From assembly GCA_029560805.1 (NCBI GenBank), contig JAKQKE010000021.1:15191-79190 (forward strand): a stretch of 64,000 nucleotides of DNA, in the 5' to 3' direction. The position numbers and the translations under genes are program-made. The notes under the pieces are model-generated. The model saw nothing but the letters and a program-made list of their open reading frames with translations, did not search any database and was not told where the DNA came from. Positions 13,475 through 36,602 of the stretch are shown piece by piece; positions within the stretch are counted from its first letter, which is position 1; each line of letters begins with the position of its first letter. Source of the DNA: Spirochaetota bacterium (lineage in GTDB: Bacteria > Spirochaetota > Spirochaetia > Treponematales > UBA12059).

Positions 13475-15070
13475 ATGAAAGGATACCCGATGGAACGTTG
13501 GAAGCGTATCGACGAGCTCGCCGGCTGGCGGGAGCTGGTGAGGCGACGGCCAGAGATCCTGCGCGGAGCCCTAACCCCGGGGCGCCTCGCGTCCAGGACG
13601 CTGCCAGCCGGCGGGGGCCTCAGCTACTCCTACGCGGCGATGGACGCCGACGACGGGACGATAGCCTCGCTGGCGGCGGCGGCGACCGAGCTCGGCCTGG
13701 TCGACCAGTACCGGGCCCTGGCCTCCGGCGAGGTGATGAACGTCGGCGAAGGCCGCATGGTGCTGCACCACCTGGCCCGCGGGACTCCCTGCGGCCCCGT
13801 CGTCAAGGGCGGCCGCGACTATCGGGCCTTCTACGAGGGAGAGCGCTCTCGCGCCGCGGCCTTCTCCGCGATGGTCCGTTCCGGGGAGCTACGCGGCTCG
13901 ACCGGCAAGCGCTTCGAGCGCGTCGTGCAGATAGGCATAGGCGGCTCCGACCTGGGGCCGCGAGCGCTGTACCTGGCCCTCGAACGCTGGGCCGCCGAGC
14001 GCGGCGAATTGGCGCTCGAGGCGTCCTTCATCAGCAACGTCGACCCCGACGACGCGAACGGCGTGCTGTCCGGCTGCGACCAGGAGACGAGCCTGTTCGT
14101 ACTCGTGTCGAAAAGCGGCACCACCCAGGAGACTCTCGCGAACGAGGCTCTCGTCCGGTCCTGGCTCGGCAGGAGGCCCGGCGTCGACGCGTCGCGGCAT
14201 ATCGTCGCCGTAACCAGCGAGACGAGCCCTCTGGCGCGCAACGCCGGCTACCTCGATTCGTTCTACATCGACGACTACATAGGCGGCCGCTACAGCGCCA
14301 CGAGCGCGGTAGGCGCCGTCGTCCTATCGCTGGCCCTCGGCCCCGACGCCTTCAAGGCCCTGCTCGACGGCGCCGCCGACGCCGACCGACTGGCGCTCGA
14401 GCCGGATCCTACCAAGAACGCGGCCCTGCTCGACGCCATGCTCGGCATCTACGAACGGAACGTCCTCGGCCGCCCGAGCGTAGCGGTCTTGCCCTACTCC
14501 CAGGCGCTGGCGCGTTTCCCGGCCCACCTCCAGCAGCTCGACATGGAATCCAACGGCAAACGGGTCGACCGCTACGGTAAGCCCGTGACGATCCCGAGCG
14601 GCCCGGCGGTATTCGGCGAGCCGGGCACGAACGGCCAGCACTCGTTCTACCAACTCCTCCATCAGGGCACCGATATCGTACCGCTACAGTTCATCGGCTT
14701 CCGCAAGAACCAGAGCGGCTTCGATCCGGAGTTCCAGGGTTCGACCGCGCGGCGCAAGCTGAACGCGAACCTCGCCGCCCAGATCGTCGCCTTCGCCTGC
14801 GGCAAGGACGACGACGACCCCAACAAGGCCTTCCCCGGCGGCCGGCCTTCTTCGTTGATAGTCGGCGATGAGCTCGACCCGGGCGCTCTCGGCGCCCTGC
14901 TCGCCCATTACGAGAACAAGGTAATGTTCCAGGGCTTCGCATGGAACCTGAACTCGTTCGACCAGGAGGGCGTTCAGCTCGGCAAGAAACTGACCGGCTC
15001 GGTACTGGCGGACGGAGGCCCCTCGGATCCGGCCCTGGCGGCCTACGCCCGCCTCCTAGGCGCGCTATGA
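13475..15070 (+). CDS. pgi: Glucose-6-phosphate isomerase
   Basis: IGIGGSDLGP, SKSGTTQET, LDMESNGK, GTNGQHSFYQLLHQG, FDQEGVQLGK; start may be 13490. Confidence 0.95.
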   Translation: MKGYPMERWKRIDELAGWRELVRRRPEILRGALTPGRLASRTLPAGGGLSYSYAAMDADDGTIASLAAAATELGLVDQYRALASGEVMNVGEGRMVLHHLARGTPCGPVVKGGRDYRAFYEGERSRAAAFSAMVRSGELRGSTGKRFERVVQIGIGGSDLGPRALYLALERWAAERGELALEASFISNVDPDDANGVLSGCDQETSLFVLVSKSGTTQETLANEALVRSWLGRRPGVDASRHIVAVTSETSPLARNAGYLDSFYIDDYIGGRYSATSAVGAVVLSLALGPDAFKALLDGAADADRLALEPDPTKNAALLDAMLGIYERNVLGRPSVAVLPYSQALARFPAHLQQLDMESNGKRVDRYGKPVTIPSGPAVFGEPGTNGQHSFYQLLHQGTDIVPLQFIGFRKNQSGFDPEFQGSTARRKLNANLAAQIVAFACGKDDDDPNKAFPGGRPSSLIVGDELDPGALGALLAHYENKVMFQGFAWNLNSFDQEGVQLGKKLTGSVLADGGPSDPALAAYARLLGAL

Positions 15071-16215
15071 GCCGAGACGACGAAATGACGGCCGGCTCCG
15101 CCAGCCCCCGCGGTGGCGACAGCGCCTGCATCGCCTTCACGGGGGGCGGCACCGGCGGCCACGTATTCCCCGGCCTGGCCGTCATCGAGGCCCTGCGCGT
15201 GCGGTGGCCGGGCAGGATAGTCTGGATAGGCTCCGGGAAGGAGGTAGAGCGACAGGCGGTCGAGGCGGCTGGGGTCGAGTTCGTCGCCATCCCATCCGGC
15301 AAGCTCCGCCGATCGGCGTCGCTCGAGAACGTCGGCGATGCCTTCAAGGTGGTCGCTGGCTACCTGGCCGCGAGGCGCGTTCTACGCGGGCTACGGCCGG
15401 CCCTGCTGTTCTCCAAGGGCGGCTATGTCAGCGTGCCGCCGTGCATGGCGGCGGCGGCGCTCGGCATACCGGTGTTCACGCACGAGTCAGACCTGTCGAC
15501 CGGCCTGGCGACGCGGCTCAACGCCAGGCGGGCCGAGCGCATCCTGGTCAGCTGGGAACGCACCCTCGACGATCTACCCGAGTCCCAGCGCGCTCGCGCC
15601 ATCGCCGTCGGCAACCCCGTGCGGCGCGCTATCCGCGCCGGGAATGCGGCCGCAGGCCGCAGGTGGCTCGGCTTCGCGGACGACCTGCCGATCGTGCTCG
15701 CGCTCGGCGGTAGCCAGGGCGCGCGGCAGGTGAACGACCTGATCGGCGCTATCCTTCCGGCGCTGGCCGGCAAGGCTCGCGTCGCCCACCAGTGCGGCCC
15801 GGGCAACCCCGTATGCAGGCCGGCGGACGGCGACTACAAGGGCTTCGAGTTCGTCTCCGGTGAGCTACCCGACCTCTATGCCGCGGCCGACGTGATAGTC
15901 GGCAGGGCCGGCGCCGGTACGCTCTGGGAAGGCGCGGCCTCGGGCAAGCCGATGGTCTTCATACCGCTCGGTTCGGGTAGCCGCGGCGACCAGGTCGAGA
16001 ACGCGCGCCTGCTCGCGTCGCGCGGCGGGGCCGTCTGCCTGGCGGGCGACGAGGCGACGCCCGAGGCCCTGCTCGCCGCGCTGACGCCACTCCTGTCCAA
16101 TCCGGAGGCCAGGTCGACGATGGCCGCCGCCGCCGGCGAGACCGCCAGGCCGGATGCCGCGGCCGCCATAGCCGGGATGATACTCGATCGAGTACTGAAA
16201 GGAAGCACGAGATGA
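15067..16215 (+). CDS. murG: UDP-GlcNAc:lipid I GlcNAc transferase
   Basis: GGGTGGHVFP, KGGYVS, VGNPVR, GGSQGA, GRAGAGT, DQVENA; start overlaps pgi stop. Confidence 0.95.
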   Translation: MSRDDEMTAGSASPRGGDSACIAFTGGGTGGHVFPGLAVIEALRVRWPGRIVWIGSGKEVERQAVEAAGVEFVAIPSGKLRRSASLENVGDAFKVVAGYLAARRVLRGLRPALLFSKGGYVSVPPCMAAAALGIPVFTHESDLSTGLATRLNARRAERILVSWERTLDDLPESQRARAIAVGNPVRRAIRAGNAAAGRRWLGFADDLPIVLALGGSQGARQVNDLIGAILPALAGKARVAHQCGPGNPVCRPADGDYKGFEFVSGELPDLYAAADVIVGRAGAGTLWEGAASGKPMVFIPLGSGSRGDQVENARLLASRGGAVCLAGDEATPEALLAALTPLLSNPEARSTMAAAAGETARPDAAAAIAGMILDRVLKGSTR

Positions 16216-16691
16216 ACGTTCTAGACTACGTATTGCTGGCCGTCATCGCCATCGCCGCGCTTCGTTGCTGGTTCAGGGGCATCGTCGGAGAGGTACTGTC
16301 GATGGCGGCTGTCGTGGGCGGCCTCCTAGCCGGTATTTTCTTCTTCCGACCAGTCGGCGCCTGGATATCGAACCTGAAGCCGCTCGGCGGGTTCGAGGTC
16401 GTCGTCGGCTTCGTGGCCAGCTTCGCCGTCGTATTCATCGTCGTCAAGATCGTCGAGAAATCGCTCCGTAGCGTACTCGAGAACCTGAACCTCGACATAC
16501 TCGACAGCGTGCTCGGCCTTATCTTCGGCGTCGTCGAAGGCGTGATCATCTCGGCCATCGTCGTTATGATTCTCCATTACCAACCGGTCTTCGACGTCGA
16601 AGCCCTGCTCGACGGAAGCTGGATCGCCAGGCTCCTCCTCCCGCTCGTCGTCGAGGCGCTACCCGCCGCCCGCTCGTCGATCTCCGGCTGA
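16212..16691 (+). CDS. cvpA: CvpA / colicin V production family membrane protein
   Basis: MNVLDY, RG...E, LD..LG..FG..EG pattern; four TM segments. Confidence 0.88.
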   Translation: MNVLDYVLLAVIAIAALRCWFRGIVGEVLSMAAVVGGLLAGIFFFRPVGAWISNLKPLGGFEVVVGFVASFAVVFIVVKIVEKSLRSVLENLNLDILDSVLGLIFGVVEGVIISAIVVMILHYQPVFDVEALLDGSWIARLLLPLVVEALPAARSSISG

Positions 16692-16696
16692 GCCCT

Positions 16697-17995
16697 ATGT
16701 TCGAGAACATCCTGTGGCAGCCTAACGCGACCGAGGCCCTCAAGGCCGAGCTGGACCGGGGAGCCCTACCAGGCTCGCTCCTGTTCGAGGGCCCGCCCCT
16801 GTCGGCGAAGCTCAGCTCCGCCCTCGAGCTGTCCAGGGCTCTGTCCTGCGAGCGCGATGCCGCCTGGAACTGCCCCTGCCAGCAGTGCTCACGGCACAGG
16901 ACGCTATCGCACCAGGATACGCTGTTGCTCGGCCCCAAGTCCTTCAGGGAGGAACTCGCCATAGGCGCGGCCATGATGGAGCGCGCCCCCGGCTCGGGCT
17001 CGAGGTTCTTCTTTACCCGTGCGGTCAAGAAGCTGACGAGGCGATTCGACCAGGAGCTATACGCCGGCGAGGAAGCGAGGCTCTCCAAGGCCCTACCGCT
17101 GGTGCGTTCCGCTCTCGAGGGCGTCGACGCCTGCGCGCCGGCTTCCCCGACGTGCCGCTCGAGCGCCCTATCCGATGACGAGGCCGTCAAGGAAGCGGGT
17201 AAGCTGCTCGGCGTCTGCGCCAAGCTCGAGGACCTGCTCCCGGCAGCCACGCCGGTTTTTCAGGTTCGAGCCATGGAATTCTGGGCCAGGCTCGCGCCCT
17301 ACGGCAGGCGCAAGACCATCATAATCGAGCACGCGGACCGCATGCTCGACGCCTCAAGGAACGCGCTGCTCAAAATACTCGAGGAGCCGCCCGAGCACGC
17401 CGTGTTCGTCCTGACCTCGAGCCGTAAGGCGGCGCTGATACCGACCGTACTCTCGAGGGTCAGACCATATCGCTTCGCCCAGCGGACGGGCGACGAGGCC
17501 CGAGCCGTGATCGAGCGCATCTTCAAGGACGACGCGGCCGGCGCCCCGACGCTTGGCGAGTACGTCTCCCGCTACAGGCCGTCGTCGACCGGCGCAGTGG
17601 ACGGCCTGGCCAGGGACTTGGCGGCGGCCATAGTTGCGGCCGCCGAGCGGAGGCGCGGCCCCTTCACCGAGGAAGCGCTATCGTCGCTCGCCTCGTCTGG
17701 CGGGCCGGTCCAGGCGGCGATCGCCGCGGCCCAGTCAGCCACCGCCAACTTCGGGTCGGCCGACGAGGCTTTCGCGTGGGCCTTCCCCGCCCTGATGGAC
17801 TCGGTCGGCTCGATCTTCGCGGCTATGCTCCGGCTACCAGGCGCCGGGCTCGAGACCCAGCGCGCCGCCGAGCTGTACGCGTCCTTGGCGCGAGACGCGA
17901 TGATCCGCTACTCGTCATACAACCTCCAGCCGACGGCCCTCGTCGAGCGCCTGGCCGACGCCTTCGCCGACGGTTGCCAGGACGGCCGCCCATGA
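16697..17995 (+). CDS. holB: DNA polymerase III delta-prime-like clamp loader subunit
   Basis: LLFEGPPLSAK, C..C..C zinc module, IIEHADRM, NALLKILEEPP, LIPTVLSR. Confidence 0.7.
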   Translation: MFENILWQPNATEALKAELDRGALPGSLLFEGPPLSAKLSSALELSRALSCERDAAWNCPCQQCSRHRTLSHQDTLLLGPKSFREELAIGAAMMERAPGSGSRFFFTRAVKKLTRRFDQELYAGEEARLSKALPLVRSALEGVDACAPASPTCRSSALSDDEAVKEAGKLLGVCAKLEDLLPAATPVFQVRAMEFWARLAPYGRRKTIIIEHADRMLDASRNALLKILEEPPEHAVFVLTSSRKAALIPTVLSRVRPYRFAQRTGDEARAVIERIFKDDAAGAPTLGEYVSRYRPSSTGAVDGLARDLAAAIVAAAERRRGPFTEEALSSLASSGGPVQAAIAAAQSATANFGSADEAFAWAFPALMDSVGSIFAAMLRLPGAGLETQRAAELYASLARDAMIRYSSYNLQPTALVERLADAFADGCQDGRP

Positions 17996-19197
17996 GGAAA
18001 TTCCTCGAGCGGGCGATGGAGAAGGTCTCCCGCATGAACGAGGAGTCCATCCGCGGGCTCCTGCGCGTGCTGGCCGACGAGAACGAGCGGCTCGACGCGG
18101 TGCTCGACTCGATGCTCGACGGCATCGTCGTCTGCGACGAGGACCACGCGCCCATCCTGGTCAACAAGGCCGCCGAGCGACTCCTGCCGATGGCGCAGGC
18201 CGAGCTGTTCGACCTGCCGCTCTGGGAGAGCGTGCGGGACGATGAGCTCGCCGGTTTCTTCGACGCCGCGCTGAACGGCGAGGAGTCGGTCATCGACAGG
18301 GAATTCGCGCTCGACGCCAAGGCCGGCACGCGCATCATATCCGTGTCGGTTACCCCGCTCGTCCGGGACAAGCGTATCCGCGGCACCTTGATCCACGTCG
18401 AGGAGACGACCGACAAGCGGCGCAGGGAGGCCAGGCTACGCAGGGCCGAGAACCTGGCGTCGCTGACGACCCTGGCCGCCGGCGTCGCGCACGAGATCAA
18501 GAACCCGCTCGGCTCCATCAGCATCCACGTCCAGCTCATGCGCAAGGCTCTCAAGGGCCTGGCCGACGAGCCGCCGATAGGCCGCTACCTCGACGTCGTC
18601 ACCGAGGAGATCGACCGCCTCAACAAGATAGTCGTCGACTTCCTGTTCGCCGTCCGGCCCATGGACATAGCCCCCATCAACGACGACCTGAACGCGCTCC
18701 TGCGGGAGCTTGCCGAGTTCATGCGCGTCGAAGTTGAAAGCGCCGGCATCGAGCTGTCGGTCGACTACGGGAAGGACGTACCGCCCTTCCCGTTCGACCG
18801 GCGCTACCTCAAGCAGGCCCTGCTCAACCTGGTCAAAAACGCGGCCGCAGCCATGCCCGACGGCGGATCGCTCCGGCTGACGAGCGAAGCCTCGGCCGAG
18901 GAAGCCAGGATAACCGTCTCAGATACGGGCGTCGGCATCACCGAGGATCGCCTCGGAAAGATCTTCGAACCGTACTATACGACCAAAGAGAACGGGACCG
19001 GCCTCGGCCTGACCCTGACCTATAAGATAGTCAAGGAGCACGGCGGCGACATCACCGTCACCTCGAAGGCGGGCCAGGGCTCGACCTTCGTCCTTGCGCT
19101 ACCGATACCGCAGCGAGACCGCCGCATGATCACCGGGGCCTGCCCCGACGGCGAGGCTTGCGAGCACGAGCCGCTACCCGATACGGAGGAAGGATGA
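17992..19197 (+). CDS. PAS-domain sensor histidine kinase (NtrB/Hk2-like), cytoplasmic
   Basis: PAS (DSMLDGIVVCD...NKAAE), AHEIKNPL H-box, NLVKNA, DTGVGI, GTGLGL; no TM segment. Confidence 0.92.
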   Translation: MRKFLERAMEKVSRMNEESIRGLLRVLADENERLDAVLDSMLDGIVVCDEDHAPILVNKAAERLLPMAQAELFDLPLWESVRDDELAGFFDAALNGEESVIDREFALDAKAGTRIISVSVTPLVRDKRIRGTLIHVEETTDKRRREARLRRAENLASLTTLAAGVAHEIKNPLGSISIHVQLMRKALKGLADEPPIGRYLDVVTEEIDRLNKIVVDFLFAVRPMDIAPINDDLNALLRELAEFMRVEVESAGIELSVDYGKDVPPFPFDRRYLKQALLNLVKNAAAAMPDGGSLRLTSEASAEEARITVSDTGVGITEDRLGKIFEPYYTTKENGTGLGLTLTYKIVKEHGGDITVTSKAGQGSTFVLALPIPQRDRRMITGACPDGEACEHEPLPDTEEG

Positions 19198-20549
19198 GGT
19201 TTACCGTACTCGTCGTAGACGACGAGAAGAACATACGCGAGGGTCTCGGCGAGTACCTGCGCCTGGACGGCTACGACGTCGAGCTTGCCGCCGACGGCAG
19301 GGAGGGCGTGGCGCTGGCGGACCGCGGCGGCGTCGACCTCGTCATCACCGACCTGCGCATGCCCGCCCTCTCCGGGGGCGAACTGCTGAGGCACGTCGTA
19401 TCGCGCTACCCCTCGGTCCCGGTCATCGTGTTGACCGGCCACGGCACCGTCGAGGACGCCGTCGACGCGATGCGCTCCGGCGCCTACGACTTCATCACGA
19501 AGCCGGTCAACCTCGATCACCTGTCGATCCTGGTCAAGCGAGCCCTTGAGCGGCGTGAGCTGTCCAGGCGGAACGAGGAGCTGCTCGAGGAGATAGAGAC
19601 GCAGCGGCGCACCTCGAGCATCATCGGCAGGAGCCCCGCGATCAGCCGCATCATGGAGCTGGTGCGCCGGGTGGCTCCTACCAAGGCGAGCGTGCTGATA
19701 ACCGGCGAGTCCGGCGTCGGCAAGGAGCTGGTCGCCGACGCGATCCACAACCTGTCGCCGCGAGCCGACGGGCCGTTCATCAAGGTGCACTGCGCGGCTC
19801 TCGCCGAGTCCCTGCTGGAGAGCGAGCTGTTCGGGCACGAGAAGGGTTCGTTCACCGGCGCCCAGGCCAGGAAGAAGGGCCGCTTCGAGCTCGCCAACGA
19901 AGGCACGCTCTTCCTCGATGAGATTGGCGAGATCAACCAGAACGTGCAGATCAAGATACTGCGGGTGCTGCAGGACAAGCGCTTCGAGCGCGTCGGCGGC
20001 GAGGAGACGATCGAGACCGACGTAAGGGTCGTCGCCGCGACGAACCGCGACCTGAAGGACGAGATCGCGGCCGGGAAGTTCCGTGAAGATCTATACTATA
20101 GGCTCAACGTCGTCAATATCCACGTACCGCCGCTCAGGGAGCGCAAGGACGATATTCCCCTCCTGGCTGGTGCCTTCCTCAGGGAATTCGCCGAGGACAA
20201 CGGCAAGGGAGTCGAGGGTTTCGACCCCAAGGCGCGGGCCGCCCTCTACGCCTATGCCTGGCCGGGCAACGTTCGCGAGCTGCGCAACTGCATCGAGAGC
20301 GCGGTCGTGATGGCCTCGGGCGGACTCGTCACGCTCGACGATCTGCCGCCCGGGGTGAGTACCAGCGCCTCCGATAGCGACATCCGCGTGCCGCCCGGCT
20401 CGAGCCTGGCCGACGCGGAGCGCATCCTGATACGGGAGACGCTCGCCGCCCAGGGCGGGAATAAGAGCCGCACGGCCGAGATCCTCGGGATAGGCAGGAA
20501 GACCCTGTACCAGAAGATCCAGGACTACGGCCTCGAGACGAGCGCCTAG
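19194..20549 (+). CDS. Sigma54-dependent response regulator / enhancer-binding protein (NtrC/Rrp2-like)
   Basis: REC domain, GESGVGKE Walker A, GSFTGA loop, LFLDEIGE, WPGNVREL, Fis-type HTH. Confidence 0.95.
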   Translation: MRFTVLVVDDEKNIREGLGEYLRLDGYDVELAADGREGVALADRGGVDLVITDLRMPALSGGELLRHVVSRYPSVPVIVLTGHGTVEDAVDAMRSGAYDFITKPVNLDHLSILVKRALERRELSRRNEELLEEIETQRRTSSIIGRSPAISRIMELVRRVAPTKASVLITGESGVGKELVADAIHNLSPRADGPFIKVHCAALAESLLESELFGHEKGSFTGAQARKKGRFELANEGTLFLDEIGEINQNVQIKILRVLQDKRFERVGGEETIETDVRVVAATNRDLKDEIAAGKFREDLYYRLNVVNIHVPPLRERKDDIPLLAGAFLREFAEDNGKGVEGFDPKARAALYAYAWPGNVRELRNCIESAVVMASGGLVTLDDLPPGVSTSASDSDIRVPPGSSLADAERILIRETLAAQGGNKSRTAEILGIGRKTLYQKIQDYGLETSA

Positions 20550-21181
20550 GAGACTTCCTCGCCCCGGGCCGGCGCGACGGCCGACTGGCTGGACTCCATG
20601 GCGAGCCTGTAGGCGATCGAGCGTCGGCGGGGATCCTCGTCGGTCCTGGCGACCTCGATGGCGGCAGAGAAGAGCGGGTCGCGCGTCGCCCTCGCCGCGT
20701 CGAGCATGGCGTCGCGTAAGCCCGGCCCCCCGCGCTGGTAGGCGTCGGCTACCTCGCCTGAGCCCTGGGCCAGCCCAAGCACGGCGGCGGCCCTGACGCA
20801 GGCGGCCGCCACCTCTTCGTCGCGGTCGTATAGCCCCTTGCGCAGGAAAACCCAGGCGCTGCGCTTTCCGGTCAGCCCGAGCCTCCTGGCCGCGGCCCGA
20901 CGTCGCGCGGGGTCGGGATGCGTGGACAGCTCGACGCCGAGGGCGAACAGGTCGGTTCGTCCGGGCTCCTCGAGTGGCCGCAACGTCGCCGGACGCTCGC
21001 GCTCCGCGACCCTGAGCGTCTGGTAGGCCTTGGCGACCATCGAGAAGCGTCGGGCCGTCGACGGATCGCCGGACGCGTCCGGGTGCAGCCGCAGGCTCAG
21101 GTTGCGATACGCCCGCTTGATCTCCTCCGACGGCGCCCCAGGCTCCAGGCCGAGCGCCAGGTACATCGCGCGCTCGCTCAT
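20546..21181 (-). CDS. J-domain co-chaperone with C-terminal HEAT-like repeats
   Basis: Y..LGL......EIKRAYR.L...HPD J-domain; Ala/Arg-rich HEAT-like helices. Confidence 0.82.
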   Translation of the reverse strand: MSERAMYLALGLEPGAPSEEIKRAYRNLSLRLHPDASGDPSTARRFSMVAKAYQTLRVAERERPATLRPLEEPGRTDLFALGVELSTHPDPARRRAAARRLGLTGKRSAWVFLRKGLYDRDEEVAAACVRAAAVLGLAQGSGEVADAYQRGGPGLRDAMLDAARATRDPLFSAAIEVARTDEDPRRRSIAYRLAMESSQSAVAPARGEEVS

Positions 21182-22893
21182 GCGCCACCCGCGGCCGCGC
21201 GGCCCCGGAACGGTAGCTCCGACGGTCGCCGAGCGTCGGCTTCAGAACGCCCCGTCCTAGCGGACAGCTCGGATAGGAGCCCCTCGAGCAGGGTCGCGAC
21301 CATGGCGGCCTTCTCATCGTCATCGCCGCATGACTCGGCCATCGCCAGCACGTCCCCGATCTCGGCGCCCAGGGCCGCGTCGACGATGGCCTCCGCCGAT
21401 TCCCGCCTGACTATCTGCGCCAGGGCGAGCACCCTGTCGCGCGGCGAGCGCGAGTCACGCTCCCCGTCGAACACCGCGATGGACTGCTCCGCGCCCGTAT
21501 CCAGGTCGCGGGCCCTGACTATCATCATGTCGCCCTCGTCTATGGCGAATTCGACGGCGATGCGGGGCTCGCCCCTGGTCGCCTTGCGGATGCCCGGCAA
21601 GAGGAAACGCCCTACCGAGGCGTTATCCGAGGCCCGTTCCGACTCGCCCTGGAGCACGTGCAGCTCGACCGAGCGCTGGTAGTCCTCGACCGTGGTAAAG
21701 ACGCGGCGGCCGACGGCGGGCAGCGGCTCGTCCTTCACGATCAGCGGGACGAAGGATCCGCCGTCTATCTCGAGGCCGAAGGTGCGCGAGCAGACGTCGG
21801 TGAAGGACAGTCCCTTGAGCCGGCCCTCTATCCTAGCGGCCTCGACGGCCGCCCCGAGCGCGACTATCTCCTCGGGGTTGATCCTGGGGTCGGCGTCGCG
21901 CCCCAGGAGCTCGGCGAGACGGCGCTTGGCCAGGGGGATGCGGCTCGAGCCGCCGGATAGTACGAGCGCGTCGACGTCGCGGACTCCCGCCTTGGCGGTG
22001 CGGAGCACCCGCTCGACGAGGGCCAGACTACGATCTATGAACGGCGAGGCTATCGCCTCGAAGGCGGCTCGCTCCAGTCGGACGCTCGGGTGGACGACGC
22101 CGCCGGCGCCGCGCAGGAAGGGCACGGCTATCGTCGCCTCGTCGCGGCTCGACAGCTCGATCTTGGCCCGTTCGCACAGGTCGACGAGGGTCCTGGCCAG
22201 GTAGGGATCGGCCGACGGATCGATGCCGAACTCGAGCCTGAAGCGCTCGGCCACCGTCTCGTAGATCGCCGCGTCGATATCCATGCCGCCGAGCGCGTCG
22301 TCGCCCTCGCTCGACAGGACCGAGCACGAGCCGCCCCTGGCCCGCAGCGCGGTGGCGTCGAAGGTGCCGCCGCCGAAGTCGTACACCAGGACGAGCCGCT
22401 CCGATTCGTCGCGGGCCGACAGCCAGGCCTTGGCCAGGGCGGCGGCGCTCGGCTCGTTCATCACGCGGGCGGCCTTGAGGCCGGCCATCGCGGCGGCGTC
22501 GCGGACGGCCCTGCGCTGGCGGTCGCCGTACCTGGCCGGCACCGTTATCACGGCTCGGTCCGCCTCGAAGCCTAGATACGACTCGGCGTCGCGCTTGACC
22601 TTACCGATGATGGCCGCTGCGGCTTCCTCCGGCGCACGCTCCCTCCCGCCGAACACGAGCGCCTGGGACTTTCCGAGCAGACGCTTGACGCCGAACAGGG
22701 CCGAGGCGGGATCGGCCAGGGCCTGGTTACGGGCGGACGAGCCGACGAGCGCTTCTCCGGATCCCGACACGGCGACGACGGACGGCGTCGCCCGTTCTCC
22801 CCGGTCGTTCGGTACGATGATGGGCGTATCGCCGTCCATCCAGGCGCAGAGGGTATTGGTGGTTCCGAAATCCAGGCCTATCACGCCGCGCAC
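21178..22893 (-). CDS. Divergent Hsp70-family protein (DnaK paralogue, short lid)
   Basis: GLDFGTTN, TPSVV, AVITVPA, NEPSAAA, YDFGGGTFD, LSGGSSRIP, TTVEDYQ..V..HVLQGE. Confidence 0.9.
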   Translation of the reverse strand: MRGVIGLDFGTTNTLCAWMDGDTPIIVPNDRGERATPSVVAVSGSGEALVGSSARNQALADPASALFGVKRLLGKSQALVFGGRERAPEEAAAAIIGKVKRDAESYLGFEADRAVITVPARYGDRQRRAVRDAAAMAGLKAARVMNEPSAAALAKAWLSARDESERLVLVYDFGGGTFDATALRARGGSCSVLSSEGDDALGGMDIDAAIYETVAERFRLEFGIDPSADPYLARTLVDLCERAKIELSSRDEATIAVPFLRGAGGVVHPSVRLERAAFEAIASPFIDRSLALVERVLRTAKAGVRDVDALVLSGGSSRIPLAKRRLAELLGRDADPRINPEEIVALGAAVEAARIEGRLKGLSFTDVCSRTFGLEIDGGSFVPLIVKDEPLPAVGRRVFTTVEDYQRSVELHVLQGESERASDNASVGRFLLPGIRKATRGEPRIAVEFAIDEGDMMIVRARDLDTGAEQSIAVFDGERDSRSPRDRVLALAQIVRRESAEAIVDAALGAEIGDVLAMAESCGDDDEKAAMVATLLEGLLSELSARTGRSEADARRPSELPFRGRAAAGGA

Positions 22894-22897
22894 GCCG

Positions 22898-23557
22898 CTA
22901 TTCCTTCGTTCGAGCCTCTCGCTCCCGTTCGATCGCGAGCGCCAGGTCCACCTCGGCGATGGTCGCGCCGAGCCTGGCCGCGATGATATCGCTCGAGAAG
23001 CCCCTCCGGGCGAGCGATACTACCTTATCGGCGAACGGCTCGTCGGTCGCGAGGGGCTTATCGGAGAACCGGATGAAGGGAACCGAGGGGGCGCCCGATA
23101 TCGGCGACGGAGCCGCCTGCCCGACCGACAGCGGCCCTGTCTCCTTCTCGGACGATCGAAGGACCTGTGGCTCATCGGCGTCGAGGACCTGACGGGGCTG
23201 CGCCGACTCAGACGCGGCCTGCGGCGCCTGAACCGGCCGACGCGGCTCTCCGGCACGACCGAGCCTATCGTAGACGACCGCCTCGGCCTGCCGCCTGGAC
23301 CGTTCCTGGCCGAGGAGGGCGATACGTTTGTCGGCCTCGGCGAGCGAATCCTTGAGGGCCCGGAGCCGGTCCTCGAGCACCGTGACGTTCCGGTCGGCGG
23401 TCGCGTCAAGCTCGACGATCAGGGAACCGATCTCGCGCCGTATGCGCTCCAGCTCCTCGTCTGCGCCGAGGAAACGGCGGACCTTGACCCTGGTCCACGC
23501 GATGAGGGCGACGGAGACGACAGCCTGGACCGCCAGGGCTATGATCAGGGGCGTCAT
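22898..23557 (-). CDS. Membrane-anchored coiled-coil protein with C-terminal HTH-like motif (SwrB/DUF6115-like)
   Basis: N-terminal TM, coiled coil, low-complexity linker, KVVSLARRGFSSDIIAARLG...EVDL. Confidence 0.65.
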   Translation of the reverse strand: MTPLIIALAVQAVVSVALIAWTRVKVRRFLGADEELERIRREIGSLIVELDATADRNVTVLEDRLRALKDSLAEADKRIALLGQERSRRQAEAVVYDRLGRAGEPRRPVQAPQAASESAQPRQVLDADEPQVLRSSEKETGPLSVGQAAPSPISGAPSVPFIRFSDKPLATDEPFADKVVSLARRGFSSDIIAARLGATIAEVDLALAIEREREARTKE

Positions 23558-23560
23558 CGA

Positions 23561-23884
23561 TTATCCCGATATGTCGACGTGGCCGCCGAGAGATGGGTCG
23601 CTGATCGTCTCGGCCTCGTCGTCCCCGGCCGGCGTCTCCTCGCGGCGTCGCTCGCCGCCCTGGCTGCCGACGCCCGAACCTCCGTCGCCATTGACCGACT
23701 TGGCGGCGGCCTGGTCGTCCTTTGGCCGTTGTACGGCCTTGGCGGCCTCGTCCTCGAGCCGCTTCACCACGGTGCCGTGAAGGTTGGCGTGGAGCAGTGC
23801 CCCGTCCTTGGCCGCCGCCTGCTCCTTGCCGACCTGGGACAACTGCAAGAACAGGGTCTGCAGGTCAATCGGCTTTATGGGCAT
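23561..23884 (-). CDS. Hypothetical protein of the type seen downstream of fapA
   Basis: MPIKPIDLQ start and G..VDI end; in operon. Confidence 0.7.
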   Translation of the reverse strand: MPIKPIDLQTLFLQLSQVGKEQAAAKDGALLHANLHGTVVKRLEDEAAKAVQRPKDDQAAAKSVNGDGGSGVGSQGGERRREETPAGDDEAETISDPSLGGHVDISG

Positions 23885-25853
23885 CCGGCGGTCCTTTCCG
23901 GAGGATCTCGTCGTCGAACTCCTCGTAGCGCGTGGTCTTGATCATCATGTTCTCGAGATAGAAGGTCAGGCCCTTGTACTCGTTCTTGATCTTCTCGCGG
24001 ATGTCGCGGATCACGATCTCCGAGCCGGGGTAGATCCTGCCCGAGACGCTGACCTTGCCGCGAACCTTCAGGTTGTTCAGGTAGGCCTGCAGGGCGTCGT
24101 ACTCGTCCTTGAGCGACGAGGACTCCTGCTTGAGCTCGTCACGGCGGTGGGTCAGCTCGTCCAGGACAGCCTGCTTATCGTCCGAAAGCGTCTTGCGCTG
24201 GCGTTTGGTCTCGTTCAGGGTATAGATGTTCTTGTCCAGCTCGTCGATCTGGCGCTGGAGCAGCTTCATCTTGCCGTCAAGCTCGTCCATCTTGAGCTTG
24301 CTCTTCGGGTCGCTGCCGACCTCGAGTATCGTCTCGGCACCGCCCGACGGCGAGCCGATCGACTTGGCGTTGATTTCCTCGCAGGCGCGGTAGCGGCCTC
24401 CGATGATGGCGGCGTGCTTCTGGCCGGAGCACAGGATGCGCTTCTCGGCGGTGATCTCCGAGTTGATGATGCTGGTCTGGACGATGACGTTCTCGCCGGC
24501 GTAGAGCTGCGCGTTCTCGATGAACTTGGCCCAGACGTTCTTGCCGGCCGTGATCACGCCCGCGCCCTTCCCGGTGATGCCCTGGTGGACGATGACGTCG
24601 CCCTCGGCGCTGATCTCGGCCTTGCCGACGTTGCCGCGCACTTCGATATTGCCGGTGGCCTTGACGGAGAAGCCGTCCTCGACGTTGCCGACGACGACTA
24701 TGGTGCCGAGGAAGAACTGGTTTCCGGTCTTGAGGTCGACGTCCCCGTTGATGGTATAGACGGTCTCGACGTTGATCTTGCTGTTGATGTAGGTGGCCTC
24801 GCCGTTGACATCCGCTATGACGGTGAGGCCGTCGTCGCTCTCGTGGACGTTCTTGCCGAGCGGAAGCGGCAGGTCCTTGCCGTTTTTGGCCGGTAAGAGC
24901 TTGCCGGTCACGGTACGGCCCGGCACGCCCTGCTTGGCCTGGACCTTCTTGGCCAGGGCCTGCCCCTCGACCACGTTCTGGACGAGGTGCAACTCCTTGT
25001 AGTCCACCTTGCCGTTCTTCTCCTCGAGGTTCAGCTTGGTGCGGTCGGTCTCGAACAGGAATTGGATGCGGGCATCGTCGCCGTTGACGGCGCGCTGTCC
25101 CTGGGCAACGAGGACAGGCTCCTTGTAGCGAGGAGCATCCTCGAGGCCCTGGAGCGCCTCCTCGATCACGCCGAAGACGACCTTGTTGTTGCGCAGGTAG
25201 GCGAGTATAACGTCCTTGGACAGGTCGCATCCGCCGGGCTGCGGCGGCGTGATTATGACGCGGGCCTCCATCTCCTGGGAGCCGATGTCGACGGTCAGGA
25301 GCGCGTCGGCGGCGGGATTGGCGATGAAGTCGCCGACGACCACCCATTCCCCGGCCGCCCGCTTGACCGTCTCGCGCACGAGCGCCTCGTCGAAGTCGTG
25401 GATCGCGCGCGCGTGGAGCTTCTCGACGGCTTGCTTGTCGGTGGCGCGGCGGCCCCTGCCCTGGGGCTCGGCTACCTTGAGCAGGGCGCCTTCGGTGGCG
25501 AGCCGCACGTAGACCTGGCCGTCGACGTCCTGCTGGATGGGCTTGAGCTCGATCGGCAGGTCGAGGCCGCCGTCGAAGGACTCGATCGACGACTCCTCGA
25601 CCTTCTGCTTGACCGCGGCCTCGTAGACGCTCAGCTTCCATTTCTTTCGGCCCAGGCCGACGAAGCCCTGCGCCCCACGCTCGAGAATGTCGTACTCGAG
25701 CCTGGCCACCGGGCAGTCGAGCTGGACGGAAGCGCTCCGGAGCGCTTCCTCGAGCGTGGCGCCCTCGGCTACTATCGCGCGCTTGTCGCCGTCCTCGTCC
25801 AGGTAACGGCGCATCAGCTCGCGGACCGCGTCGAAGCCTATGCGCGCCTCCAT
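23865..25853 (-). CDS. fapA: Flagellar assembly protein A (DUF342) with N-terminal Jag_N-like domain
   Basis: EGATLEEAL....L......YDILERG..GFVGLG Jag_N-like start; GDVDLKTGN, G.VEDGF.V.A beta-helix repeats; C-terminal coiled coil. Confidence 0.82.
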   Translation of the reverse strand: MEARIGFDAVRELMRRYLDEDGDKRAIVAEGATLEEALRSASVQLDCPVARLEYDILERGAQGFVGLGRKKWKLSVYEAAVKQKVEESSIESFDGGLDLPIELKPIQQDVDGQVYVRLATEGALLKVAEPQGRGRRATDKQAVEKLHARAIHDFDEALVRETVKRAAGEWVVVGDFIANPAADALLTVDIGSQEMEARVIITPPQPGGCDLSKDVILAYLRNNKVVFGVIEEALQGLEDAPRYKEPVLVAQGQRAVNGDDARIQFLFETDRTKLNLEEKNGKVDYKELHLVQNVVEGQALAKKVQAKQGVPGRTVTGKLLPAKNGKDLPLPLGKNVHESDDGLTVIADVNGEATYINSKINVETVYTINGDVDLKTGNQFFLGTIVVVGNVEDGFSVKATGNIEVRGNVGKAEISAEGDVIVHQGITGKGAGVITAGKNVWAKFIENAQLYAGENVIVQTSIINSEITAEKRILCSGQKHAAIIGGRYRACEEINAKSIGSPSGGAETILEVGSDPKSKLKMDELDGKMKLLQRQIDELDKNIYTLNETKRQRKTLSDDKQAVLDELTHRRDELKQESSSLKDEYDALQAYLNNLKVRGKVSVSGRIYPGSEIVIRDIREKIKNEYKGLTFYLENMMIKTTRYEEFDDEILRKGPPDAHKAD

Positions 25854-25854
25854 A

Positions 25855-26643
25855 CTAAACGATGCCCTTCCGGTAGTGCGTCAGTCGCGCGCGTAGGCGC
25901 AGGATGGCCTTCGTATGGAGTTGGCTGATCCTCGATTCGGTTACCTCGAGCACCTTACCGATCTCCTTGAGCGTCAACTCCTCGTAATAGTAGAGAACGA
26001 GGACCTTCTTCTCCTTATCCGGTAGCTCCTGGATGGCCTCGACGATCACGCGTCGTATCTCCTCGCGCTCGGTGATCGAGTCGGGGCTCATGCTGCCGGG
26101 GCTCTCGACGCTGTCGCCTATCGTCATGTGCTCGGACTCGTCCGCGGTATACCAGACGTCATTGAGCGACAGGATCGAGGTGCTCGATATCTTGAGCATC
26201 GTCTTGGAGAATTCATCGTCGGACAGGCCGAGCGACTCGGCGATCTCCTGATCCGTAGCGGGGCGGCCGAGCTTGGCCTCGGTCTGTACGATGGCTTCTT
26301 CGATCTCCCTGGTCTTCTGACGCACCGAGCGTGGGACCCAATCGATACTGCGCAGCTCGTCGTAGATGGCGCCCCTGATACGGGTGACGGCGTAGGTCTT
26401 GAATTTAACGTTCTTATCGGGGTCGTACTTGTCTATGGCGTCGATAAGGCCGAACACGCCGAACCCGACCAGATCGTCGAACTCGACCGATGACGGCATG
26501 TTCGCGACGACCTTGCCCGCCACATACTTGACCAGCGGCGCGTACTGCTTGATGAAGGCTTCGCGGATAAGGGGATCCTTGCGCTGCCGGTAGGCGGCCC
26601 AGAGCTCCTCTTCGCTGTGATGCTCCAGCAGGGAATGATTCAT
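25855..26643 (-). CDS. fliA: RNA polymerase sigma28 (FliA/WhiG/SigD)
   Basis: DDLVGFGVFGLIDAIDKYD, TYAVTRIRGAIYDELRSIDWVPRS, LKEIGKVLEVTESRISQLH. Confidence 0.96.
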   Translation of the reverse strand: MNHSLLEHHSEEELWAAYRQRKDPLIREAFIKQYAPLVKYVAGKVVANMPSSVEFDDLVGFGVFGLIDAIDKYDPDKNVKFKTYAVTRIRGAIYDELRSIDWVPRSVRQKTREIEEAIVQTEAKLGRPATDQEIAESLGLSDDEFSKTMLKISSTSILSLNDVWYTADESEHMTIGDSVESPGSMSPDSITEREEIRRVIVEAIQELPDKEKKVLVLYYYEELTLKEIGKVLEVTESRISQLHTKAILRLRARLTHYRKGIV

Positions 26644-27336
26644 TTATAATTGCCCTTTCTGGTCTCTGCGCAGTAATGTCTGTACGGCCTTGGCGAGTAC
26701 CGCCGGATCCCTTCCGGCGTCCGGCGCCCCGGCGCTAGGCATGCTGTCCGACGGCCCCGCCAGGTACGAGGCGTCGGGAGCCGGCGCCTCTCCTTCGCCG
26801 GCCAGGGTCGTCGTGAAGGCGTCGCTAAACCCGTCCAAGTCGGGCAACGTGTCCAGTTCGTCGAGAGAGACCGACGGCCGCGGCGCCCCATTCGGCGAGG
26901 GCGCCTCGCCGGGGTCGCTCGAGACGAAGCTATCGCTCCGCAGATCGGCTACCTCCCGCTCTAGTTCCCCGGCGGCGACAGCCGTGGCGGCGGGCTCTCT
27001 CCGAGGCTCGGCGGCCACGGCCGGGGCCGATTCGCCCGCCTCGGCGGCCTGTACATCGCGTTCGGCCTCCCCGCCGGGCAGGACGATGTCGACGATGGAG
27101 CCGACAGACTCGTCTTGCCCCGTGTAGGCCGTCGCCGCGACGTCTCCGAACAGCTCGGGGAGGAATCGTCTCAGTACCATGATGGCGCCGTAGCATAGCC
27201 CCGCGAAGGCTAGGCCCGACAGCAGGGCGCGGAGGACCAACGCGCCGAAAGGGACGCGCGAGAAAGCGGCGACGATGATCGATAACGCGAACGCGCCAAG
27301 CCCCGCGAAGGCGGACGCGCGAAGACTCGAGTCCAC
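26644..27336 (-). CDS. Hypothetical protein: two TM helices, acidic disordered linker, C-terminal amphipathic helix
   Basis: ORF 230 aa with GTG start and GGGAGG RBS; abuts the fliA start (TAAATG). Confidence 0.75.
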   Translation of the reverse strand: MDSSLRASAFAGLGAFALSIIVAAFSRVPFGALVLRALLSGLAFAGLCYGAIMVLRRFLPELFGDVAATAYTGQDESVGSIVDIVLPGGEAERDVQAAEAGESAPAVAAEPRREPAATAVAAGELEREVADLRSDSFVSSDPGEAPSPNGAPRPSVSLDELDTLPDLDGFSDAFTTTLAGEGEAPAPDASYLAGPSDSMPSAGAPDAGRDPAVLAKAVQTLLRRDQKGQL

Positions 27337-27421: not shown

Positions 27422-28288
27422 CTATTCTTTCGAGAACAGCTTCTTGATGAGGCGGCTAATGCCGCGGTCGTCGACGAATTCGGTCTTCTCGATACGGTTC
27501 ACCAGGTGCTGCACCGAGATTGCGGCCTTGGACTTGGGATCCTGGACGATGAAGGGCCGCTGCCTGAGCACCGACTGCTGGACGATGGGGTCTTCATAGA
27601 TGCAGCCGAGGTATTCGACCTTCAGGTTGAGGAACTGCCCCGAGATGTTGATGATACGTTCGGCCACCTTGCGGCCTTCGGTCACGGTCTTCACGCGGTT
27701 GACGACCAGCTTGAGGCCTATGTTCAGGTTCTCGACCTCGGTGGCTATGATCTTGATGATGCCGTAGGCGTCGGTAATGGCGGTCGGCTCCGGGGTGGTG
27801 ATAATGATAGCGTCGTCGGCCGCGGCGACGAAGGACAGCACGTTGTTCGAGACGCCGGCGCTCGTATCGATGATGATGATGTCGACATTGGTCAGAGCGT
27901 ACAGCTCGGATATAAAATTCTGCCGTTCTTCCTCGTTCAGGTTGGCGATCTTGGAGAAGCCCGACGCCCCAGCCAGGATCTGGATCCCGTACTCCGTATC
28001 CAGGATGATGTCGCGCATAGATTTCTGCTTACGTATCACATGGTACAGGTTGTACTTGGGAATCATGTTGAGCATGATGTTGACGTTGGCCAGGCCGAGG
28101 TCCGCGTCCATTACCATCACGCGCTTGCCGGTCCGGGCGTAGGCTATGGCTAGGTTGACGGACAGGTTCGTCTTACCGACGCCGCCCTTGCCGCTGGCGA
28201 CGGTGATGACGCGGGTCTTCTTGGCCGCCTGCTGGGGCTGCGGCTTAGCGCTCATCAGCTCCCGCAGCTTCTGCGCCTGGTCTTCCAT
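27422..28288 (-). CDS. flhG: MinD/ParA-family flagellar number regulator
   Basis: SGKGGVGKTNLSVNLA, DADLGLANV, IIDTSAG, TPEPTAITDAY. Confidence 0.93.
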   Translation of the reverse strand: MEDQAQKLRELMSAKPQPQQAAKKTRVITVASGKGGVGKTNLSVNLAIAYARTGKRVMVMDADLGLANVNIMLNMIPKYNLYHVIRKQKSMRDIILDTEYGIQILAGASGFSKIANLNEEERQNFISELYALTNVDIIIIDTSAGVSNNVLSFVAAADDAIIITTPEPTAITDAYGIIKIIATEVENLNIGLKLVVNRVKTVTEGRKVAERIINISGQFLNLKVEYLGCIYEDPIVQQSVLRQRPFIVQDPKSKAAISVQHLVNRIEKTEFVDDRGISRLIKKLFSKE

Positions 28289-28313: not shown

Positions 28314-29492
28314 TTACGTAGTCGTTGATCCGTATCTCTCTTCTAGTTTCGGTCGATTCGGCCTAAAACCTTCGAGATTCATGAGGAATCTGAGAGGATT
28401 TGCCCGCGCGATGTCCTGGGGCACCTTCTGGCCGTCGGTAATCCAGGCCACGGCCTTGTCGGTCTCAGCGAGCACCGAAAGCACGTTTCCGACGCGGCTC
28501 GTCTCGTCCATCTTCGTAACGACCACACCCCGATACCGGAACGGCTCGAACTGCCTGAAGATATCGAGCATGTCCTGAGTCTTGGTCGTAGCGGCCACCG
28601 CGAGGTAGACCTCGGCGGCCGGCCCGCAGGCATCGAGCACCTGCTGCATCTCGGCCAGCCGTATCGCGTCCCGGGGGCTCTTGCCTATCGTATCGACCAG
28701 AATAAGGTCATTGTCACGGTACATCGCTATGGTCTCGCGCAGGTCCTGGGCCGTCTCGACCACGGAGACCGGCACGCGCATGATCCCGGCGTACTTCTCG
28801 ATCTGCTCCACCGCCCCAATGCGGTAGCTGTCTATGGTGATCATGCGCACGGCGCCGGCCGGCAGGCCGCCAATGCCGAGGCTGTGCAGGGCCGCCAGCT
28901 TGGCGATGGTCGTCGTCTTGCCGACGCCGGTCGGGCCTACGAGCACGAGCACCCGCGGCTTGACCGGCCTCGCGGGCGCGGGGATACGTACGGTATCGCC
29001 TATCCATTCGAGGAAGGCCTCTTCGACCGCCGCGTAGTCCTCGAGTTCGCCGAGGCTGAATTCGTCCCGGGCCCTGGCCAGGAGCTCGGCGCGGTACCAG
29101 GGCGAGAAATCATTGTCGACGAGCAGGGCGTCGAGGGCGGCGAGCGTCGGATGCTCGCCGTCCTGGGCCGCGGGCCTCGCGACGCTCTCGGCGAGCGTAT
29201 CCTTGAGCGAGCGCACCTCGGAGAGTACCTCCTGGATGGCCCGCTCCTGATTGACGCGCTCGAGCAGCCTGCGCTTCTCCTCCTCGATGTCGGCCTTCTT
29301 CTTTTCGCCCTCGCGCACCGCGTCGTCCTTCAGGTAGAAGGTTATCTCGACGCCCTCGCGGGCGAACAGGCCGAGGAAGCCGCCGGATCGTACGGTACGA
29401 TGGCTCAGGACCTGGGCCGCGTCGCCGTAGCGGGCGCGGACCTTCTCCAGGACCTCCCGATGACTGGAGCCCTGCTCTACCAGGTATTGCAT
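28314..29492 (-). CDS. flhF: Flagellar SRP-type GTPase
   Basis: [42 protein letters not shown]. Confidence 0.95.
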   Translation of the reverse strand: MQYLVEQGSSHREVLEKVRARYGDAAQVLSHRTVRSGGFLGLFAREGVEITFYLKDDAVREGEKKKADIEEEKRRLLERVNQERAIQEVLSEVRSLKDTLAESVARPAAQDGEHPTLAALDALLVDNDFSPWYRAELLARARDEFSLGELEDYAAVEEAFLEWIGDTVRIPAPARPVKPRVLVLVGPTGVGKTTTIAKLAALHSLGIGGLPAGAVRMITIDSYRIGAVEQIEKYAGIMRVPVSVVETAQDLRETIAMYRDNDLILVDTIGKSPRDAIRLAEMQQVLDACGPAAEVYLAVAATTKTQDMLDIFRQFEPFRYRGVVVTKMDETSRVGNVLSVLAETDKAVAWITDGQKVPQDIARANPLRFLMNLEGFRPNRPKLEERYGSTTT

Positions 29493-35504: not shown

Positions 35505-36602
35505 CTAGAAACCTCGTATCACCGCTTCGTCGAGGCGCGATACCACAGCCAGGGCCAGGCGTACCGAGTTCTCGAAATCGGCGTACGAGGCGATGCCGTA
35601 GTGCGTATGGATGTAGCGGACCGGTAGCCCAATGACGATGACCGGGACGCCCGGGCCGGACAGGTGAATCGGCCCGCCGTTGGTCGCGCCGCCTGAACGG
35701 ACCGACGCCTGTACCGGAATGCCGAGCTCGGCCCCTAGGTCGAGGGCGAAGCGCTGGAAACGGGGGTTGGTGATCATCATACGGTCTATGAAACGCAACA
35801 TCGGACCGCGTTTCAGCGCCGTCTGGACCATGTAGTCGTCGGCGAAGGTATCGTCAGCGGGGCAGCCTTCGAACACGATGGCAGCCGCAGGGTTCACCGC
35901 CCGCGCGGTCACTCCGGCGCCGCGCATGCCGACCTCCTCCTGCGAGGCCAGCGCGCCGACCACCTCGACGCGTAGCGGCAGCCCGCTCGCCCGCCTCATC
36001 GTCTCGATGACGGCGGCGCAGCCGAGCCGGCAGTCGAAGGCCTTGCCCGTCATCAGGTCGCGAGCGGCGTCATACCGGAAGTCAACGTCGGGCACCACCG
36101 GCTCGCCGATCCTGACGCGGAAGACGTCCTCGGCCTCCGCCTTGCTCGTCGCCCCTATGTCGATCGCCAGGTCCTCAATGTCGAGCGGCTTGGCTTTCTC
36201 GGCCTCGGTCATGAAGTGAGGCGGCTTGGAGGCGATGACGCCGGGTATGTAGCGGCCGTCGGCGTCGCGCACGAGCACGCGGTGGGCGGGGACAGTGTTC
36301 GGTACCCAAGCGCCGAGCGGCACGAAGCGCAGCGTACCGTTCGGCTTGATGGCCTGGACCATGAAGGCCACCTCGTCGGTGTGCGCGTCGAGCATCACGA
36401 CCGGGCCGTTCTTGCCGAACCCGTCGCGGCGAAGATAGAGGTTGCGTACGCTGTCCTCGGTTACGGCGCTCGCGGGGCCAGCGGCGTCCCGGAGTACGGC
36501 CAGGACGTCGTCCTCGAAGCCCGGAGCGCCGGCCGCGTTCGACAGGCGCTCTATGAGGTTGAGCGCCGGGCGGTCGGGCGAGTCGAGCCGTCCGTCGGTC
36601 AT
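35505..36602 (-). CDS. M42-family (TET-like) metallo-aminopeptidase
   Basis: DAHTDEV, GKAFDCRLG, SQEEVG.RGA, RYIHT metal-ligand motifs. Confidence 0.9.
   Translation of the reverse strand: MTDGRLDSPDRPALNLIERLSNAAGAPGFEDDVLAVLRDAAGPASAVTEDSVRNLYLRRDGFGKNGPVVMLDAHTDEVAFMVQAIKPNGTLRFVPLGAWVPNTVPAHRVLVRDADGRYIPGVIASKPPHFMTEAEKAKPLDIEDLAIDIGATSKAEAEDVFRVRIGEPVVPDVDFRYDAARDLMTGKAFDCRLGCAAVIETMRRASGLPLRVEVVGALASQEEVGMRGAGVTARAVNPAAAIVFEGCPADDTFADDYMVQTALKRGPMLRFIDRMMITNPRFQRFALDLGAELGIPVQASVRSGGATNGGPIHLSGPGVPVIVIGLPVRYIHTHYGIASYADFENSVRLALAVVSRLDEAVIRGF

Follow-up and report, generated by a model that had tools for sequence, protein, structure and literature searches.

A short-lid Hsp70 and a J-HEAT protein at the end of a spirochaete flagellar operon: a candidate chaperone pair for motility

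Only DnaK, HscA and HscC are recognised as Hsp70 types in bacteria (PMC8215388), and the systems closest to the gene pair described here come partly from these chaperones and partly from flagellar genetics. HscA and HscB are one Hsp70 and its dedicated J protein, both encoded in the operon of the pathway that they serve, and the non-J domain of HscB, a helical bundle, binds a single client class. Escherichia coli HscC is a specialised, non-flagellar Hsp70 (PMC8215388) of 556 residues that is linked to Cd2+ and UV tolerance, and its J proteins, DjlC and DjlB, lack HEAT repeats and are tail-anchored in the membrane. In Vibrio alginolyticus, the J-domain protein SflA represses misplaced flagella when FlhF/FlhG are absent (PMC7226244). 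In Borrelia burgdorferi, the flgB superoperon spans bb0294-bb0264, with bb0268 encoding FlgV, bb0267 encoding FapA and bb0272-bb0264 being co-transcribed (PMC11607428); the bb0264 product, DnaK-1, has been named as a candidate virulence determinant, and bb0264 transposon mutants are viable, the one that was tested being partly attenuated in mice, with 7/15 positive sites (PMC3485029). The literature matches that we obtained for bb0264/dnaK-1 were these two papers only, and they contain no functional study of the gene and describe no J-HEAT partner. Here, we analysed a window of 64,000 nt from a genome assembly of a Spirochaetota bacterium (GCA_029560805.1, contig JAKQKE010000021.1, positions 15,191 to 79,190), in which the last two cistrons of a flgB-type flagellar superoperon are an Hsp70 paralogue of 571 residues with a GTG start (21178-22893, minus strand) and a J-HEAT co-chaperone of 211 residues (20546-21181, minus strand). 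Based on gene linkage, we suggest, with a probability of about 60%, that the two proteins form a motility-dedicated Hsp70/J machine in which the HEAT domain picks a specific cytoplasmic motility client.

The minus strand of the window is occupied by one long co-oriented flagellar operon that runs from flgB (~52020) to the J gene. It comprises, in this order, flgB, fliF, fliG, fliH, fliI, fliJ, fliK, flgD, flgE, flbD, motA, motB, fliL, fliM, fliN, fliO, fliP, fliQ, fliR, flhB, flhA, flhF, flhG, a gene for a 230-residue membrane protein, fliA and fapA; the closing genes are a 107-residue open reading frame (ORF) with a PIDLQ motif, a gene for a 219-residue membrane protein of DUF6115/DUF2802 type, the Hsp70 gene and the J gene. 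The coordinates and the overlap of the Hsp70 and J genes are those given by an earlier, sequence-only reading of this DNA, which had also correctly placed the pair in the same orientation as fliA (25855-26643, minus strand; sigma-28 of the FliA/WhiG type, NCBIfam PRK06288 401 bits and TIGR02479 294 bits, both above cut-off) and fapA (23865-25853, minus strand; Jag_N, FapA_N and FapA beta-solenoid, Pfam 51.6, 166.8 and 246.5 bits). The successive spacings from fapA to the J gene are -20, 3, 4 and -4 nt, the last being the overlap of the pair, and from fliA to the J gene there is zero intergenic space. Searches of the coding strand from fliA to the start of the Hsp70 gene were negative for a sigma-70-like promoter, an intrinsic terminator and a sigma-28 consensus. 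Because the stop codon of the J gene overlaps that of a convergent gene for a sigma-54 activator (19158-20549, plus strand; response regulator, AAA+ and Fis helix-turn-helix, Pfam Sigma54_activat 245 bits and Response_reg 103 bits), the operon ends there, and the activator gene occupies the same position in close relatives.

The locus is present at 99-100% identity in four biofilm metatranscriptomes. A 1616-nt RNA contig (21613-23228) bridges the 219-residue protein gene and the Hsp70 gene, the Hsp70/J junction is bridged by RNA contigs from three runs and the fliA/fapA junction by one RNA contig; these bridging contigs agree with co-transcription. Both the Hsp70 gene and the J gene are under purifying selection: the ratio of nonsynonymous to synonymous substitution rates (dN/dS), computed against the closest orthologue (L012) at a dS of 0.35-0.40, is 0.15 for Hsp70 and 0.12 for the J protein, and 0.05 and 0.03 for FapA and FliA, respectively.

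The Hsp70 matches Pfam HSP70 (PF00012) with 415 bits over residues 4-493 and has the hallmarks of the superfamily, namely an actin-like nucleotide-binding domain (NBD) with the phosphate-1, phosphate-2 and adenosine motifs, the catalytic residues and a beta-sandwich substrate-binding domain (SBD). In the alignment to E. coli DnaK, with which it shares 38% identity, D8, K70, R151, R167, E171, D194, T199 and D201 are all kept, and the residues that contact the J domain are also retained. The sequence-only reading had recognised the intact ATPase core from the K70- and E171-equivalents; its further claim that Thr199 is replaced by Asp is a numbering error, because T199 lies in DLGGGT199FD, which is intact here as DFGGGTFD. 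The change that it had seen, from GDTHLGG to GDDALGG, concerns DnaK residues 223-229, and this motif varies elsewhere, reading GDSALGG in HscA, GDNFLGG in HscC and GDNHLGG in Geobacillus DnaK. The linker and the lid, on the other hand, do depart from DnaK in the way that had been claimed. Specifically, the NBD (1-355) is without a 24-residue lobe-I insert (gap at DnaK 76-101), a deletion that is also common to many non-proteobacterial DnaKs (PMC8215388); the interdomain linker reads LSFT, while that of DnaK reads VLLL; and the SBD-beta (~363-478) is followed by a short lid of three helices (484-554) and a disordered tail (555-571). An AlphaFold model with a mean predicted local distance difference test (pLDDT) of 88.5 has a full NBD and beta-sandwich and places the lid helices at 484-501, 506-521 and 526-554. 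Past DnaK position 507 the lid comprises 92 residues, as compared to 129-150 in 14 DnaKs. The missing lobe-I segment, the LSFT linker and the short lid are what is truly unusual in this Hsp70.

The protein thus has neither the VLLL linker nor the lid of ~130-150 residues of a canonical DnaK, and it differs from one in two further respects. Its scores stay below the NCBIfam-curated DnaK cut-offs (433 vs 822.55 for TIGR02350 and 440 vs 648 for PRK00290), and its gene lies outside a grpE-dnaK-dnaJ context; the housekeeping grpE-dnaK-dnaJ operon sits on another contig of the genome (C179), in agreement with the earlier remark that no grpE is nearby, and the true DnaK scores 916 bits on PF00012. 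A duplicate of canonical DnaK was rejected on these curated cut-offs. HscA was rejected because the score is below the cut-off (TIGR01991, 339 vs 708.55) and there are no isc genes in the window, and a decaying gene on the basis of dN/dS and the intact catalytic residues. The protein is best modelled as an HscC-like Hsp70 in which the lid is short, the ATPase core is intact and the substrate pocket of the beta-sandwich is normal.

The J protein consists of a J domain (residues 3-61) with HPD at 33-35, a 16-residue linker (62-77) and eight helices (78-201) that form four HEAT-like pairs in the AlphaFold model (pLDDT 90.1, predicted template modelling score 0.85), in which the four-helix J domain is also visible. 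The J domain matches Pfam DnaJ (PF00226) with 56.6 bits against a cut-off of 27.8, and H33-P34-D35 is invariant across 57 J orthologues. The window protein alone scores 23.1 bits with HEAT_2, which is below the Pfam cut-off of 27.7; among the orthologues, HEAT_2 is found in 56 of the 57, with a best E value of 5e-9. The best Foldseek matches are alphaRep/PBS-HEAT and CpcE/F lyase, with a root-mean-square deviation of ~3 Å over ~120 columns. By Pfam there is no glycine/phenylalanine-rich (G/F), zinc-finger (PF00684) or DnaJ C-terminal (PF01556) domain, and the DnaJ equivalog scores are all below 40 bits against cut-offs above 300. HEAT-like repeats in place of the G/F and zinc regions, next to a preserved HPD, is what the sequence-only reading had described, and this architecture is retained in distant families. 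The protein would therefore be a soluble class-C J-domain protein, the four HEAT-like repeats of which may serve as a client-selecting module. Because the Hsp70 and the J protein both begin directly with their cytoplasmic domains and have no signal peptide or membrane helix, neither is exported. The arrangement resembles HscA/HscB in that an Hsp70 has a dedicated J protein and both are encoded in one pathway operon; it differs in the lack of an isc context and in having HEAT repeats in place of the helical bundle of HscB.

We queried 401 Spirochaetota genomes with the Hsp70 and with the J protein, retrieved 58 loci and located the genes in them by tblastn and by reading of ORFs. In what follows, f1, f5 and so on are handles for genome families; the names Treponemataceae, Leptospiraceae, Brachyspiraceae and Borreliaceae are given to families that look like these groups and are therefore qualified as apparent. 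The linkage of the pair to the flagellar operon proved to be conserved: the order fapA, PIDLQ ORF, membrane coiled-coil protein, Hsp70 and J is found in 12 families (f1, f5, f7, f8, f16, f20, f21, f30, f32, f35, f41 and f43; in f5 without the J gene), and several of these belong to other classes than the window organism. The pair is ancient and widely distributed among spirochaetes. A profile built from diverse J-HEAT proteins returned only proteins labelled as Spirochaetota or unlabelled ones before reaching ordinary DnaJ/CbpA. Two families from the same class, f6 (genome G145) and f11 (genome G371), have no FapA match and only one Hsp70, which would fit non-motile spirochaetes such as Sphaerochaeta.

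The f5 loci (L046 and L047) are, we infer from kinship and from gene coordinates (~280 kb; 277-278.5 kb for bb0264 in B31), those of Borreliaceae. With the order bb0267-bb0264 taken from PMC11607428 and the supplement of PMC3485029, bb0264 occupies the same slot as the window Hsp70, following bb0267 (fapA), the small ORF bb0266 and bb0265, which encodes a membrane coiled-coil protein with ..ATDRNI... A Borrelia dnaK paralogue near the end of the flgB operon had been mentioned in the sequence-only reading; it is bb0264/dnaK-1, the last gene of the superoperon (PMC11607428), and the apparent Borreliaceae locus falls into the clade of the window protein. Unlike the window, this locus is without fliA.

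In several lineages the operon keeps its tail without the pair. The families f3, f4, f9, f10 and f40 have fapA, the PIDLQ ORF and the membrane coiled-coil gene and then stop; the apparent Treponemataceae and Leptospiraceae likewise keep fapA and the two small genes, and the apparent Brachyspiraceae keeps fapA but not both small genes. Because the three-gene tail persists without the pair in several lineages, Hsp70/J is an optional addition to an older three-gene tail, and the pair is an accessory and not a core requirement of periplasmic flagella. The proposal that the pair is specific for periplasmic flagella is accordingly not supported, given its absence from the apparent Treponemataceae, Leptospiraceae and Brachyspiraceae and the cytoplasmic nature of both proteins; the knockout suggested for T. 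denticola is probably impossible, as the family appears to be without the pair.

Several observations weigh against a dedicated role in motility. The apparent Treponemataceae have one Hsp70 in ~50/53 genomes and yet are flagellated, and the same is true of the apparent Leptospiraceae and Brachyspiraceae, with at most one Hsp70 per genome. The paralogue is separated from fapA in f39, f52, f56, f57, f46 and one f3 genome, and in f39 the J partner has no detectable HEAT repeat. The apparent Borrelia has no J-HEAT gene, and its Hsp70 comprises only 503 residues with ~31 lid residues, unlike that of the window. Sequence evolution of the Hsp70 and the J protein is 3-5 times faster than that of FliA and FapA. 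The RNA contigs are strandless, and carry-over of DNA is possible. The relocated paralogues usually still have a J gene with the 4-nt overlap.

To place the Hsp70 among its relatives, we used a quick tree of 59 sequences and a careful LG+C20 tree of 32 sequences, with one HscC included. Both trees unite all paralogues in a single clade that is separate from the DnaKs of these genomes (support 97/99 and 100/100). The earlier view of a specialised Hsp70/J pair outside the housekeeping system is supported. The window protein shares a group with f8, f7 and f5, the Borrelia-like family (f1+f8+f7+f5; support 100/99), which makes it an orthologue of dnaK-1. Only in this subclade is the linker degenerate, and most other paralogues keep [IV]VLVDV; the LSFT-type linker is a derived trait of one subclade and not of the whole family, and allosteric coupling is probably altered there. 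The lid comprises ~105 residues in most paralogues, 74-92 in f1, 31 in f5 and f18 and 4 in f41, and the catalytic residues are kept in the paralogues with truncated lids (L046/L047 in f5, L040/L048 in f18 and L049 in f41).

The same trees bear on the possibility that the protein is a general or stress-type spare HscC-like Hsp70 with no tie to motility, its position at the operon end being an accident kept by inertia. E. coli HscC nests inside the paralogue clade with a support of 100/100 in the LG+C20 tree, a clade made up of spirochaete proteins alone is disfavoured by an approximately unbiased (AU) test (p = 0.03), and HscC is itself specialised and non-flagellar. The paralogues that are unlinked to flagellar genes in f39, f52, f56, f57 and f46 point the same way. 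Against this, HscC is represented by a single sequence on a very long branch (2.59), and the HscC-type L1,2 insertion of 4-8 residues, visible in E. coli HscC when aligned with them, is absent from the window Hsp70 and from every spirochaete paralogue aligned. Because of the long branch and the missing insertion, we call the spirochaete proteins HscC-like. HscC groups with the spirochaete paralogues in both trees and shares with the window system a short Hsp70 (571 residues in the window, within the 550-580 of the HscC type), the absence of DnaK 76-101, a J protein encoded nearby and no grpE (PMC8215388); its identity to the window protein is 31%, lower than that to DnaK. Moreover, the pair or its neighbourhood is tied to fapA or to che genes in 14 families from different classes, with tight translational coupling, which goes beyond inertia, and we regard a spare Hsp70 without a motility function as unlikely.

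Chemotaxis genes recur next to the pair and suggest another function, in which it would serve the chemotaxis array and not the flagellum, by assembly or turnover of CheA/CheW/receptor complexes. cheW directly follows the J gene in f20, f32, f35 and f43; in f27 the order is membrane coiled-coil protein, Hsp70, J, cheW, cheR and cheA, away from fapA; and in f18 it is cheD, cheR, cheB, an intervening gene, Hsp70 and J. However, no che gene is adjacent to the pair in the window, in f1, in f8 or in the apparent Borrelia, and what stays constant next to the pair is fapA with the two small proteins, making service to the array alone slightly less likely still than a spare chaperone. That the pair controls sigma-28 by binding and sequestering or releasing FliA, in place of or in addition to an anti-sigma factor, would have an established precedent in the control of sigma-32 by DnaK/DnaJ (PMC8215388) and would agree with its location, in one operon with fliA and three genes past it, but this is improbable because the apparent Borrelia without fliA keeps the Hsp70 in the same place, the pair accompanies che genes and not fliA in f27 and f18, and many families with fliA are without the pair.

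A motility-dedicated Hsp70/J machine, suggested by the linkage to fapA or che genes in those 14 families, could work as follows, by analogy with described systems. The HEAT domain would bind a specific cytoplasmic protein of the motility apparatus; the HPD loop would then dock on the ATP-bound Hsp70 and elicit hydrolysis, upon which the Hsp70 would clamp a segment of the client to hold, unfold or remodel it; and nucleotide exchange would probably be independent of GrpE, as in HscA and HscC. Candidate clients, from gene linkage, are FapA, the DUF6115/DUF2802-like protein, the PIDLQ protein, FlhF/FlhG and chemotaxis-array proteins. More tentatively, and as a possibility that we rate well below even odds, the pair might use ATP to assist in placing flagella or in assembling the export gate, in which case the HEAT domain would dock on FapA, the DUF6115/DUF2802-like protein or FlhF/FlhG and the Hsp70 would remodel the bound protein, setting flagellar number or position. 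SflA offers a parallel here, since it combines a J domain with a helical-repeat (TPR/SLR) module and acts on a flagellar system of the FlhF/FlhG type (PMC7226244); unlike the window protein, it is a membrane protein with periplasmic repeats, encoded outside the flagellar cluster, without a dedicated Hsp70 and restricted to Vibrio. If a role in placement is true, the pair would be a spirochaete counterpart of Vibrio SflA with its own Hsp70, and a class of flagellar assembly factor apart from the type-III export chaperones.

The two genes between fapA and the Hsp70 gene were overlooked in the sequence-only reading. The apparent gap of 307 nt after fapA is a gene, the 107-residue ORF (23561-23884, minus strand), which overlaps the end of fapA by 20 nt and was recognised by reading of the sequence. 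The protein that it encodes carries MPIKPIDLQTLF as its N-terminal and DPxLGxxIDISG as its C-terminal motif; in the family, the two ends are conserved as MxIxPIDLQ at the start (also in the form MPIxPIDLQ) and DPxLGxxIDIxG at the finish. It has no Pfam or NCBIfam family, alone or across 19 orthologues; a protein with the PIDLQ motif follows fapA in 24 of the fetched loci, including those of lineages without the Hsp70, and the dN/dS of the ORF is 0.10-0.11. The gene for the 219-residue protein (22898-23557, minus strand) starts 3 nt past this ORF and ends 4 nt before the Hsp70 gene. It encodes a single-pass membrane protein with a coiled-coil motif, ..ATDRNV.VLEDR.. (..TDRNI..LEDR.. in the family), and a conserved C-terminal motif that resembles a helix-turn-helix (GFSSDIIAARLGATIAEVDLAL). 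Its type is given by the Pfam matches of 11 orthologues, with DUF6115 in 7/11 (best E value 4e-7) and DUF2802 in 6/11 (best E value 1.5e-6). A protein of this type lies directly upstream of the Hsp70, and its gene is the last of the operon where the Hsp70 is absent.

Further upstream in the operon, the 230-residue protein (26644-27336, minus strand) between flhG and fliA has two predicted membrane helices and no Pfam or NCBIfam family match; it occupies the slot of FlgV (bb0268) in Borrelia (PMC11607428) and is a candidate FlgV by position alone. It is preceded by flhG (27422-28288, minus strand; Pfam), flhF (28314-29492, minus strand) and flhA (29496-31589, minus strand), a block supported by tblastn synteny with relatives, and FliO, FliK and FliN, encoded further upstream, were identified by Pfam matches. 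Between fliN and fliO, a gene for an M42 glutamyl aminopeptidase (35505-36602, minus strand; Pfam 255 bits) is an odd passenger in the export block. Beyond the other end, a gene for a PAS histidine kinase (17776-19197, plus strand) and that for the sigma-54 activator run toward the operon end (15067-20549, plus strand), an arrangement common to close relatives, and ~7 kb past the operon end lies a gene for a 414-residue protein with a C-terminal PilZ domain (12058-13302, minus strand).

To our knowledge, HscA is the single one of the three bacterial types with a known dedicated client. The presence of a short-lid Hsp70 and its J-HEAT adaptor in flagellar or chemotaxis operons across much of the Spirochaetota is a fourth setting for Hsp70, and the family includes dnaK-1 of the Lyme-disease agent, a gene annotated ever since genome sequencing. 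Because transposon mutants of bb0264, bb0265 and bb0266 exist, the idea can be put to the test directly. Should the client prove to be a motility protein, an ATP-driven chaperone step would be added to flagellar biogenesis, and the Hsp70 field would gain a natural series of lid truncations (~105, 92, 31 and 4 residues) and linker changes.

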